From Escherichia coli O157:H7 (GTDB lineage: Bacteria; Pseudomonadota; Gammaproteobacteria; Enterobacterales; Enterobacteriaceae): a stretch of 64,000 bases of DNA. The stretch lies in the NCBI RefSeq assembly GCF_013167455.1, contig NZ_CP038328.1; one strand, 5' to 3'. The first letter of the stretch is position 1; each line of letters begins with the position of its first letter. Made by a program: the position numbers. Shown here in pieces: positions 42,001 to 45,000 of the stretch.

Positions 42001-45000
42001 AGGTTTCACCACTGACGGCATTGCCACAAAAATCCGTATTGATGCCGGAGTGGCACCACTTGACTGGCGCGGGCTGGTGCGTTCGTCGGTGGCCTGATAA
42101 CCGCGTTATCACAATCACTGCCCGAAAGGGCTTTTTTTATGCCTGAAAAACAGCCCCACAGGGGCTGTCCGGAGAAACAGCATTATGGCGAAAAATTTTG
42201 TACAGGACGGTACCACCATTGAACTGGTGAATGCCGGAGATCAGACCATCCTGAGCGGTGCTGCGGTGGTGGTCGGCAGTATGGTGGCCGTGGCCATTAC
42301 CGATATTCCTGCCGGTGAGGCCGGTGACGGTTTTGCCGAAGGCGTGTTCCTGCTGCCCAAACAGTCTGCTGACGACATTCAGTCCGGCGCGGTGGTTTAT
42401 CTGAAGGACGGGGTTGTGCAGCTGGCTGCAGACGGTGCGGTGGCAGCGGGGGTAGCCTGGGAAAATGCCCCTGCAAACAGCGCCACTGTGGCGGTAAAAA
42501 TCAATGTCTGATCTGTTTACGCGAATGTGTTGCCGGATGGACGTGGCGACCGTTCGGGTGATGGGCAAACAGGCGGAGATTAACGGCGTCGTGTACGACG
42601 TGATGCCGGAGGAAGAGTCCGCGGAGATGGGGGCGCTTTCGGGCAGCCAGTTGTCACTGGTGGTGTTTTCAGCCCGGTACCGTCCGGCCCGTCATGATGT
42701 TGTTGTGTTTGCGGGGCGCACACTGACGGTGACCCGTTATGACACGTACAACGGTAAACCCCGGATTTTTGTCGAACAGGAATGAGTATGGCAATAAAAG
42801 GTCTGGCGCAGGCCATGAAAAATCTGGATGCAATTGATCGCCGTGCCGTTCCCCGGGCCTCTGCCACGACACTGAACCGAGTGGCGGGGGCCATTATTGC
42901 GAAAACGGCCTCTTCAGTTGCCAGGGAGCTGGCCGTTCCCCGTCGTCTTATCCGTGCCCGCATCCGGTTAAGTCCGGCACGACCGGATAAGGTTTACGCA
43001 AAGGTTTACATCAATACCGGCAACCTGCCCGCCATCAAACTGGGGGAGGCCCGCGTTCGACTTTCCCGCAGAAAACGGAGAAAGAAAGGACAGCGTGCGG
43101 CCCTGAAAGGGGGCGGCAGTGTGCTGATTGTGGGGAAAAGACGGATCCCGGACGCCTTTATCACCCGGCTGGCTAACGGACGCTGGCATGTGATGCAGCG
43201 TATGCCGTGGGCATCATCATCCACCGGCGCGGACAGCAAAGGGAGGCCGAAACGCCACCGTCTGCCGATCGAAGTGGTGAAGATTACGACTGCCGGACCG
43301 CTGGCAGAAACCTTTGAACGTGAACGGGACCGGATGTACCGGGAAAAATTACCGGCGCAGATGATGAAAGCCATGACGCATCAGTTACGCCTGGTGCTGA
43401 AAAGAAAATGACTGGGAGGGTGTATGAAACACCGTGAAATACGGGCGGCAGTTCTGTCTGCCCTGAAAGAAAATATTTCTGAGAGGGTGAGCTGGTTTGA
43501 CGGTCGCCCGGTTTTTATTGATGAACAGGAACTGCCTGCTGTTGCTGTTTACCTGACAGATGCGTCTGCTGCTGACGAGTTCGTTGATGAGGGAACCTGG
43601 GAGGCGACACTGCATATTGAGGTTTTTCTCAGGGCAAAAGAACCGGACTCGGCACTGGATATGTGGATGGAAGAAAAAATTCTTCCTGCGCTGGAGGCAG
43701 TTCCCGGGCTCAGTGCATTACTGCTGAAGATGAATCTTCAGGGGTATGACTACCGCCGGGATGATGAGTTTATGATGTGGGGATCGGCAGATCTCCTGTG
43801 GAAAATTACCTACGAGATGTGAGGACGATATGGCAACACCAAATCCCCTTGAGCCGGTAAAAGGTGCCGGTACCACTCTGTGGGTTTACAACGGCAAGGG
43901 TGATGCTTATGCAAACCCGTTGTCAGACGATGACTGGCAGCGACTGGCTAAGGTGAAGGATCTGACGCCGGGCGAGATGACGGCAGAACCCTACGATGAT
44001 AACTACCTGGATGATGAAGACGCGGACTGGACCGCGACCGGGCAGGGGCAGAAGTCTGCAGGAGATACCAGTTTTACGCTGGCCTGGAAACCGGGAGAAG
44101 AAGGTCAGAAAGGGCTTATAGGCTGGTTTGAAAGCGGGGATGTGCGGGCCTATAAAATCCGTTTCCCAAATGGCACGGTGGATGTGTTCCGTGGCTGGGT
44201 CAGCAGTATCGGTAAGGCCGTGACGGCGAAAGAAGTGATCACCCGCACGGTGAAAGTCACTAACGTGGGCAAACCTTCCGTGGCGGAAGAACGCAGCGAA
44301 ATTACGCCGGCCACTGCAATTAAGGTGACACCGACATCCGGTACGGTGGCAAAAGGGAAAACAACCACCCTGACGGTTTCTTTTGAGCCGGAAAGTGCAA
44401 CCGACAAGACGTTCAGAGCGGTTTCCGCCGATCCGTCGAAAGCCACCATTAGTGTGAAAGATATGACAATTACGGTAAACGGCGTGGCGACAGGTAAGGT
44501 GCAGATCCCTGTGGTGAGCGGAAATGGTCAGTTCGCCGCAGTGGCTGAAGTCACCGTTACTGAAGCGGGCGCTGCAGGGTAAACGGAGGTAATACATGTT
44601 TCTGAAAACAGAACAATTTGAATATAACGGTGTGTCCGTCACGCTTTCCGAATTGTCTGCGCTGCAGCGGTTTGATTATATAAAGTTTGTTTCAGACGCA
44701 GAACAACAGGAGACAACGAAGCATGATGTCGTGCACATTAACCAGCGATATCTGGAAACGGCATCCCTGCTTGTGGCGATGTCGCTATGGCATTCCCATT
44801 CCCTCAAAGGCACTCTGGCCTCTCCGGAGACAGAGATGCAGCAGATCCGCCGTGAAGTGATGCTGGGATGGCCTGCTGATGCACTGAATCAGGCAACGAA
44901 CCGGGTGCTTTATCTTTCAGGTATGCTGGATAACCGGCACGATGCCGATCCTGAACAAACCGGTAAAGCAGAAGCGACTGAGTCGGTAACATCAAAAAAG

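Follow-up and report, generated by a model that had tools for sequence, protein, structure and literature searches.

A very probable lambda-type -1 frameshift site in the G/GT tail chaperone genes of an Escherichia coli O157:H7 lambdoid prophage

Inspection of a 64,000-nucleotide stretch of Escherichia coli O157:H7 DNA (the window) identifies the heptamer A_AAA_AAG at 44994-45000 on the + strand as, with high confidence from sequence evidence, the programmed -1 ribosomal frameshift site of the G/GT tail chaperones of a lambda-like prophage. Under this reading, the majority of ribosomes would translate TCA AAA AAG and five more codons before reaching the stop, giving a gpG of 140 aa. In a minority, the pair of tRNA-Lys on AAA (P site) and AAG (A site) would slip back by one base and pair anew with AAA AAA, making GCA at 45000 the next codon, and the T frame would then be read for 117 codons to produce a GT protein of 252 aa. 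A slip on A_AAG is favored because the single tRNA-Lys of E. coli (mnm5s2U34) forms a stronger pairing with AAA than with AAG (PMC5009743).

The products expected from such a slip are familiar from phage lambda, in which the T frame is expressed as a frameshift-derived gpGT at a gpG:gpGT ratio of about 30:1, the G domains bind the tape measure protein, the T domain binds V and nucleates its polymerization, and neither chaperone is present in the virion (PMC5009743). Homology with lambda leads to the prediction that H, the tape measure protein, would be coated by the G domains of gpG and gpGT and that the T domain would recruit the tube protein V and nucleate V polymerization, with both chaperones gone from the finished tail. 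We infer both the slippage itself and these protein partners.

Coding context, phase and chance level of the heptamer

The G/T pair is preceded by V, the gene of the tail tube, and followed by H, the gene of the tape measure, in a Z-U-V-G-T-H-M-L gene order, where Z, U, V, H, M and L each have a specific lambda-family match. V (43830..44582, +) encodes the major tail tube protein of 250 aa with a C-terminal Ig-like domain (PF16461 Phage_TTP_12, E=1e-68; PF02368 Big_2, E=2e-18), and H (45397..48042, +) encodes the tape measure protein (PF06791 TMP_2, E=4.5e-46; PF09718 Tape_meas_lam_C, E=2e-20). The 0-frame product of G (44596..45018, +), the 140-aa tail assembly chaperone gpG, matches PF06894 Phage_TAC_2 with residues 1-123 on profile positions 1-123 of 126 (E=6e-35) and the equivalog TIGR01674 phage_lambda_G at 116 bits against a cut-off of 74 (E=9e-34). 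The T segment in the -1 frame (45000..45353, +), comprising 117 sense codons and a TGA, matches PF06223 Phage_tail_T (E=7e-12; 46 bits, cut-off 25.9) and the equivalog TIGR01715 phage_lam_T (E=7e-53; 177.7 bits, cut-off 77), the latter aligning fusion residues 140-249 with profile positions 1-110 of 111.

Joining the two segments as join(44596..45000,45000..45353) predicts a 252-aa GT fusion, in which ...ESVTSKK on the G side of the junction is followed directly by AFEGELNFVLK... on the T side. This conceptual 252-aa protein aligns with PHROG 32165 (phrog_32165) over residues 1-251 (E=2.5e-146), and since the profile covers both the G and T parts, the family apparently derives from fusion proteins of full length. 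With GT as query, phmmer matched nothing in the PDB at E <= 1, and a + strand scan for promoters or terminators between V, G, T and H found none.

Inspection of the reading frames places the heptamer where a productive shift would have to occur. Bases 44994-45000 read AAAAAAG, and (44994-44596) mod 3 = 2, such that the first base of the heptamer is the third codon position of the G ORF. With the ORF starting at 44596, the 0-frame codons are TC(A AAA AAG), which is the canonical X_XXY_YYZ phase. Past AAG, the 0 frame continues with CAT TCG AAG GCG AGC and then TGA, leaving five sense codons between the heptamer and the G stop; an earlier note on this DNA had given the same heptamer, position and five-codon distance, and its reading is exact. 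The -1 frame carries a TGA at 44979-44981, is open from 44982 and meets its next TGA at 45351-45353, while the G stop lies at 45016-45018. The G and T frames are thus jointly open only in the two-frame overlap 44982..45018 (+), and production of GT needs a shift within it. The earlier note also had the -1 frame continuing for 118 codons to 45353, of which the end point stands and the count is one too high for sense codons: the extension from 45000 contains 117, or 118 with the stop included.

Chance accounts poorly for a heptamer in this position. Across the + strand structural ORFs, an in-phase X_XXY_YYZ occurs at 16 of 4753 codon positions, and this rate of 0.34% per codon leads to an expectation of ~0.04 in-phase heptamers in the 12-codon overlap of G with the -1 frame. 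In-phase AAAAAAG occurs only once among the same 4753 positions, at 44994-45000. A -1 slip was also computed for each of the 21 in-phase heptamers of the structural genes. For 20 of them the shifted frame closes within the same gene, 0-69 codons on; the heptamer at 44994 alone adjoins a 0-frame stop and reads beyond it, for 117 codons. The tape measure gene supplies a negative control: at 45474 it has A_AAA_AAA in phase, and there the -1 frame is closed after 3 codons.

Conservation of the site and expression of T

Alignment with the lambda reference sequence (J02459) places CATC-AAAAAAG of the window in the same columns as CTGC-GGGAAAG of lambda, whose G_GGA_AAG is an experimentally established slip site (Levin et al. 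1993, as summarised in PMC5009743). A G-protein scan of viral contigs yielded 80 loci and, with lambda and one O157 relative added, 80 loci were evaluable. Every one of these 80 has the heptamer in phase, five codons ahead of the G stop, with a T homologue in the -1 frame. The heptamer reads AAAAAAG in 70 of the 80 and GGGAAAG in the other 10, both of which rank in the top three shift-prone heptamers measured in E. coli (PMC4066793). Identity of G to the window falls as low as 42-49% in the GGGAAAG group, with the heptamer position still kept; between the window and lambda, identity is 42% for G and 70% for T. Variation within the heptamer is confined to its first three bases, which switch jointly between AAA and GGG while AAAG is invariant, the pattern expected of tandem tRNA slippage. 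A single locus, L067, is without the heptamer, and the deletion that takes out its site also scrambles the frames, which marks it as a decayed copy.

A run of six A's also brings the polymerase into question. RNA polymerase could add one A within the A6 run, such that a minority of the mRNA would encode the same S-K-K-A junction, and the resulting +1A protein would be identical to the -1 ribosomal product and inseparable from it by mass spectrometry alone. Polymerases are known to slip on runs of A or T (PMC5009743, PMC4066793). This contrasts with the ten homologous loci, lambda among them, that have GGGAAAG and therefore three A's only, a sequence that suits tandem tRNA slippage and not the polymerase. 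Strict codon phase, with X at codon position 3, is likewise a requirement of the ribosome and not of the polymerase. Efficient slippage by E. coli RNA polymerase takes runs of about nine or more, and six A's yield very little. Given GGGAAAG in ten homologues and phase as the conserved feature, transcriptional slippage is disfavored and we regard it as extremely improbable.

A different route to T would dispense with recoding altogether, with T made independently as a 102-aa protein from the first T-frame ATG at 45045-45047. An ATG-initiated ORF is indeed present at 45045-45353, and both PGAP and the phage records draw T in this way. The signals around the ATG argue otherwise. The sequence GAGAG precedes it at zero spacing, no Shine-Dalgarno at usable spacing was found upstream of it, and the ATG lies within a hairpin of -21.9 kcal/mol; in contrast, the ATG of G has a GGAGG Shine-Dalgarno and that of H, at 45397, a GGAGGT Shine-Dalgarno, each at normal spacing. 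T is thus predicted to be without a translation initiation signal of its own.

Conservation of the T protein family likewise begins upstream of the ATG, directly past the slip site. Alignment to TIGR01715 sets in at fusion residue 140, 5 residues past the junction and 11 before the Met of T, and the peptide encoded between slip site and ATG is AFEGELNFVLKLARE in the window versus VFDGELSFALKLARE in lambda, with conservative changes only. Downstream, variable columns number 12, 11 and 26 at codon positions 1, 2 and 3 of the -1 frame, an enrichment at the third position. Within the 27 nt between the G stop and the T ATG, the corresponding counts of 0, 3 and 3 are too sparse to use alone, such that the case against an independent start draws on amino-acid conservation and the TIGR01715 start point rather than on codon statistics of the 27 nt. 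Independent expression would also leave the heptamer's retention in 80 of 80 loci to be accounted for, and in lambda T is made as part of the frameshift-derived gpGT fusion (PMC5009743). Taken together, we assign separate initiation of T hardly any probability and favor -1 slippage at 44994-45000 as its source.

Sequence and predicted structure around the heptamer were examined for stimulators of the frameshift. No Shine-Dalgarno-like stimulator is present in the 25 nt before the heptamer, a span that includes the 6-17 nt zone. Past the heptamer, the first 40 nt fold at -4.1 kcal/mol, weaker than shuffled sequence (z = +1.7), and no stable structure was found within ~10 nt downstream. A search of Rfam returned no frameshift element and only two chance-level matches, both at E > 3. 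A dnaX-type stimulated cassette, which pairs an upstream Shine-Dalgarno-like element with a hairpin ~5-9 nt downstream, was considered and rejected. The lack of an adjacent stimulator fits low-level slippage of the lambda type, and for the same reason we infer that the rate is probably a few per cent.

The hairpin enclosing the T ATG (45034..45069, +; -21.9 kcal/mol, z = -4.3) is a stable structure within the T coding sequence. It is also found in lambda and 8 other relatives, lies where that coding sequence is most conserved, and has 0 compensatory pairs in the 10 sequences compared. We rejected it as a demonstrated stimulator on account of this absence of compensatory changes and its distance of 33 nt from the heptamer, too far for a ribosome pausing on the heptamer to reach. 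By enclosing the ATG it may, speculatively, further suppress internal initiation.

The earlier note had proposed that the conserved G/GT mechanism of lambda-like tails operates here. At the level of sequence, this proposal is borne out by the homology of both proteins, the placement of the pair between V and H, the lambda-equivalent site, its occurrence across 80 of 80 loci and the missing start signal for T.

Prophage state, the short T allele and annotation

Host genes, namely a Yip1-family gene, a pbpG-like gene, dld, bglX and an osmoprotectant ABC transporter, lead into the prophage. A 5'-truncated mlrA/yehV (10600-11247) and a phage integrase (11322-12608) follow, and after the integrase a lambdoid prophage of ~46 kb extends to a point before btsS/btsR, at ~57.5 kb. 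The prophage is of the O157:H7 type, lambdoid, stx-less and integrated in mlrA/yehV. Between 26000 and 50000 the window is 99.8% identical to strain ECP19-598, and 36 of the 44 differences fall in 44957-45311, where the window carries an Sp11-like allele. This cluster places the slip site inside a ~355-nt recombination patch between lambdoid prophage alleles, and both alleles of the patch carry the same heptamer.

Recombination and decay are features of O157 lambdoid prophages, to which the patch at 44957-45311 attests, and the heptamer might therefore be a fossil that persists by descent alone in a defective prophage with a C-terminally truncated T. The closest genome lends this idea some substance, as PGAP calls the same short T allele incomplete there, and in that genome Z is frameshifted and bet is interrupted by an IS; in the relative L067, the slip site is deleted. 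In contrast, the window has intact Z, U, V, G, T, H, M and L with full-length family matches, and its bet is uninterrupted. The short T spans TIGR01715 positions 1-110 of 111. Phage ASU11, which was induced with mitomycin C, has exactly this short ending, as do the phage records VT1-Sakai and 1720a-02 and 635 E. coli genomes. We consider a fossil site exceedingly unlikely. The site may be inherited yet currently unused, and even in a silent prophage the element would remain a G/GT slip site. Returning to the reading of a programmed site within an intact module, the slip site and the genes Z, U, V, H, M and L are all intact, which indicates that the tail module is probably functional, and the state of this module bears on whether the prophage could mobilize.

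T itself differs in length among these elements: lambda has 144 codons, the Sp11-like relative 152 and the window 117. When T-frame translations of the three are compared, an in-frame remnant of the longer C-terminus is seen past the TGA of the window, at 45354..45405 (+). The remnant, QLLMVSEDISGGDHDGR ending in a stop, has 17 codons and is still recognisably homologous to the lambda T C-terminus. The same interval also holds the Shine-Dalgarno and start of H, and the remnant is the same in 27 loci, always with the stop context TGAC. Low-level readthrough of the weak UGA-C stop (45351-45354) could append QLLMVSEDISGGDHDGR to a fraction of GT, a proposal we regard as very unlikely; if true, two stacked recoding events on one message would yield G, GT and GT-extended. 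In a milder variant, the swap from G_GGA_AAG to A_AAA_AAG could retune the G:GT ratio in the lineage.

The practical value of these results lies in annotation. No public annotation inspected joins G and T, which are drawn as two CDSs, and PGAP flags T of the closest RefSeq genome as 'incomplete; missing C-terminus', mislabeling it as a pseudogene. The sequence instead supports a CDS of join(44596..45000,45000..45353) encoding the 252-aa GT, the G-T join that public records omit. The G/GT site is already known biology, near-identical in hundreds of sequenced genomes, and no new biology is implied.

Comparison with known frameshift systems

The gamma/tau switch of E. coli dnaX has a Shine-Dalgarno-like stimulator upstream and a hairpin a short way downstream, its shift rate is roughly 50%, and its shifted product is the shorter one. 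The search of the window revealed no stimulator beside the heptamer, and here it is the shifted product that is longer. Both systems have the identical heptamer A_AAA_AAG, with the same basis in tRNA-Lys slippage (PMC5009743). Transposases of the IS3/IS1 families use a -1 shift between orfA and orfB to make, as predicted for GT, a longer fusion protein in a set ratio, and A_AAA_AAG or A_AAA_AAA account for 72% of the heptamers they use (PMC4066793). The proteins are unrelated to G and T, and the IS sites usually come with a downstream hairpin or pseudoknot. A copy of IS1203 in the relative L083 has an annotated pseudoknot.

Phage lambda offers the closer parallel, for which the literature on G/GT (Levin, Hendrix and Casjens 1993; Xu, Hendrix and Duda 2004, 2013, 2014) is taken here as cited in PMC5009743. 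Homologous G and T, the Z-U-V-G-T-H order, the same slip columns, the five codons to the G stop and T in the -1 frame are shared between lambda and the window, and neither has an adjacent classical stimulator. The two differ in the heptamer, G_GGA_AAG in lambda versus A_AAA_AAG in the window, and at the end of T, which stops 43 nt before H in the window whereas lambda T overlaps the start of H.

Nearest of all are the lambdoid prophages and Stx phages of O157:H7. A_AAA_AAG is common to VT1-Sakai/Sp15, CP-1639, ASU11, 1720a-02 and the Sp11-like allele. T ends short, as in the window, in VT1-Sakai, ASU11 and 1720a-02, and the match to the window across the T/H junction is ~98% for VT1-Sakai, CP-1639 and ASU11. 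The Sp11-like allele matches the window at 99.1% identity over G and most of T. What sets the window apart from these alleles is that its G-T region is a mosaic, with an Sp11-type patch at 44957-45311 in a backbone of the VT1-Sakai/ECP19-598 type.

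Mosaic structure of the G-T region

Comparison of the window with its closest relative genome, the O157:H7 strain ECP19-598, reveals 99.8% identity across 24 kb, where 36 of the 44 differences are confined to the 355 nt between 44957 and 45311. This interval covers the 3' end of G, the proposed slip site (A_AAA_AAG, 44994-45000) and most of T, and within it the window agrees with the Sp11-like allele, that of another O157 lambdoid prophage, rather than with ECP19-598. Judged from these alignments, 44957-45311 is a recombination patch.

A stable hairpin lies 33 nt downstream of the heptamer (45034-45069; -21.9 kcal/mol, z = -4.3), is conserved with lambda and contains the T frame's first ATG. 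Inspection of this hairpin for covariation found none. Early in the tape measure gene there is a second in-phase slippery heptamer, A_AAA_AAA (45474-45480). This one is probably incidental, since a -1 slip there is computed to reach a stop after 3 codons. The slip site is naturally knocked out in L067, a related viral contig where a deletion of ~35 nt (L067:2860-2960) takes away the heptamer together with the stop codon of G and leaves the frames scrambled. The prophage with this deletion is presumably defective.

Intact genes and early-region cargo

Gene Z (42782-43411) differs from ECP19-598 by a one-base indel at 43109; it is intact in the window, with a full-length PF06763 match, whereas the annotation of ECP19-598 has it as a pseudogene with a frameshift. 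The gene bet (17186-17971, minus strand) is an uninterrupted 261-aa ORF in the window and is split in a 99.8%-identical relative by an IS1203 element of the IS3 family, for which a programmed frameshift and a pseudoknot of its own are both annotated. The head gene at 40118-42097 overlaps at its start with the 3' end of the portal gene; by the product name that PGAP gives in a near-identical relative, it encodes a ClpP-like prohead protease/major capsid fusion protein.

The early region carries a minus-strand gene for a 535-aa SIR2-like protein (19143-20750, PF13289), which adjoins an XRE-type repressor and is likely a prophage-borne anti-phage defence gene. Genes with HEPN and toxin YdaT domains are expected nearby, their coordinates having been mapped from a close relative.

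Integration site and the stx position

The prophage is inserted in mlrA/yehV (10600-12608 and ~57300-59241), the Stx1-phage site of O157:H7. Of the MerR HTH profile, what remains of the gene covers just positions 26-68. The integrase adjoins this remnant, and btsS/btsR follow the far end of the prophage. A tRNA cluster at 29763-30526 precedes a 648-aa DUF6645 ORF; in the cluster, ARAGORN calls Met(CAT), Arg(TCG) and Arg(TCT) and PGAP has Ile for the first. Only ~500 nt separate the tRNAs from this ORF and there is therefore no room for stx genes in the interval where Stx phages carry them.

The short T allele

T ends with a TGA (45351-45353) in a weak TGAC context, and the sequence in frame beyond it (45354-45405) encodes QLLMVSEDISGGDHDGR and then a stop. 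This remnant has homology to the lambda T C-terminus. PGAP labels this short allele 'missing C-terminus'. The same arrangement of a TGAC stop with an in-frame remnant is found in 27 related loci. Despite the PGAP label, the short allele is present in the mitomycin-C-induced phage ASU11 as well as in the phage records VT1-Sakai and 1720a-02.
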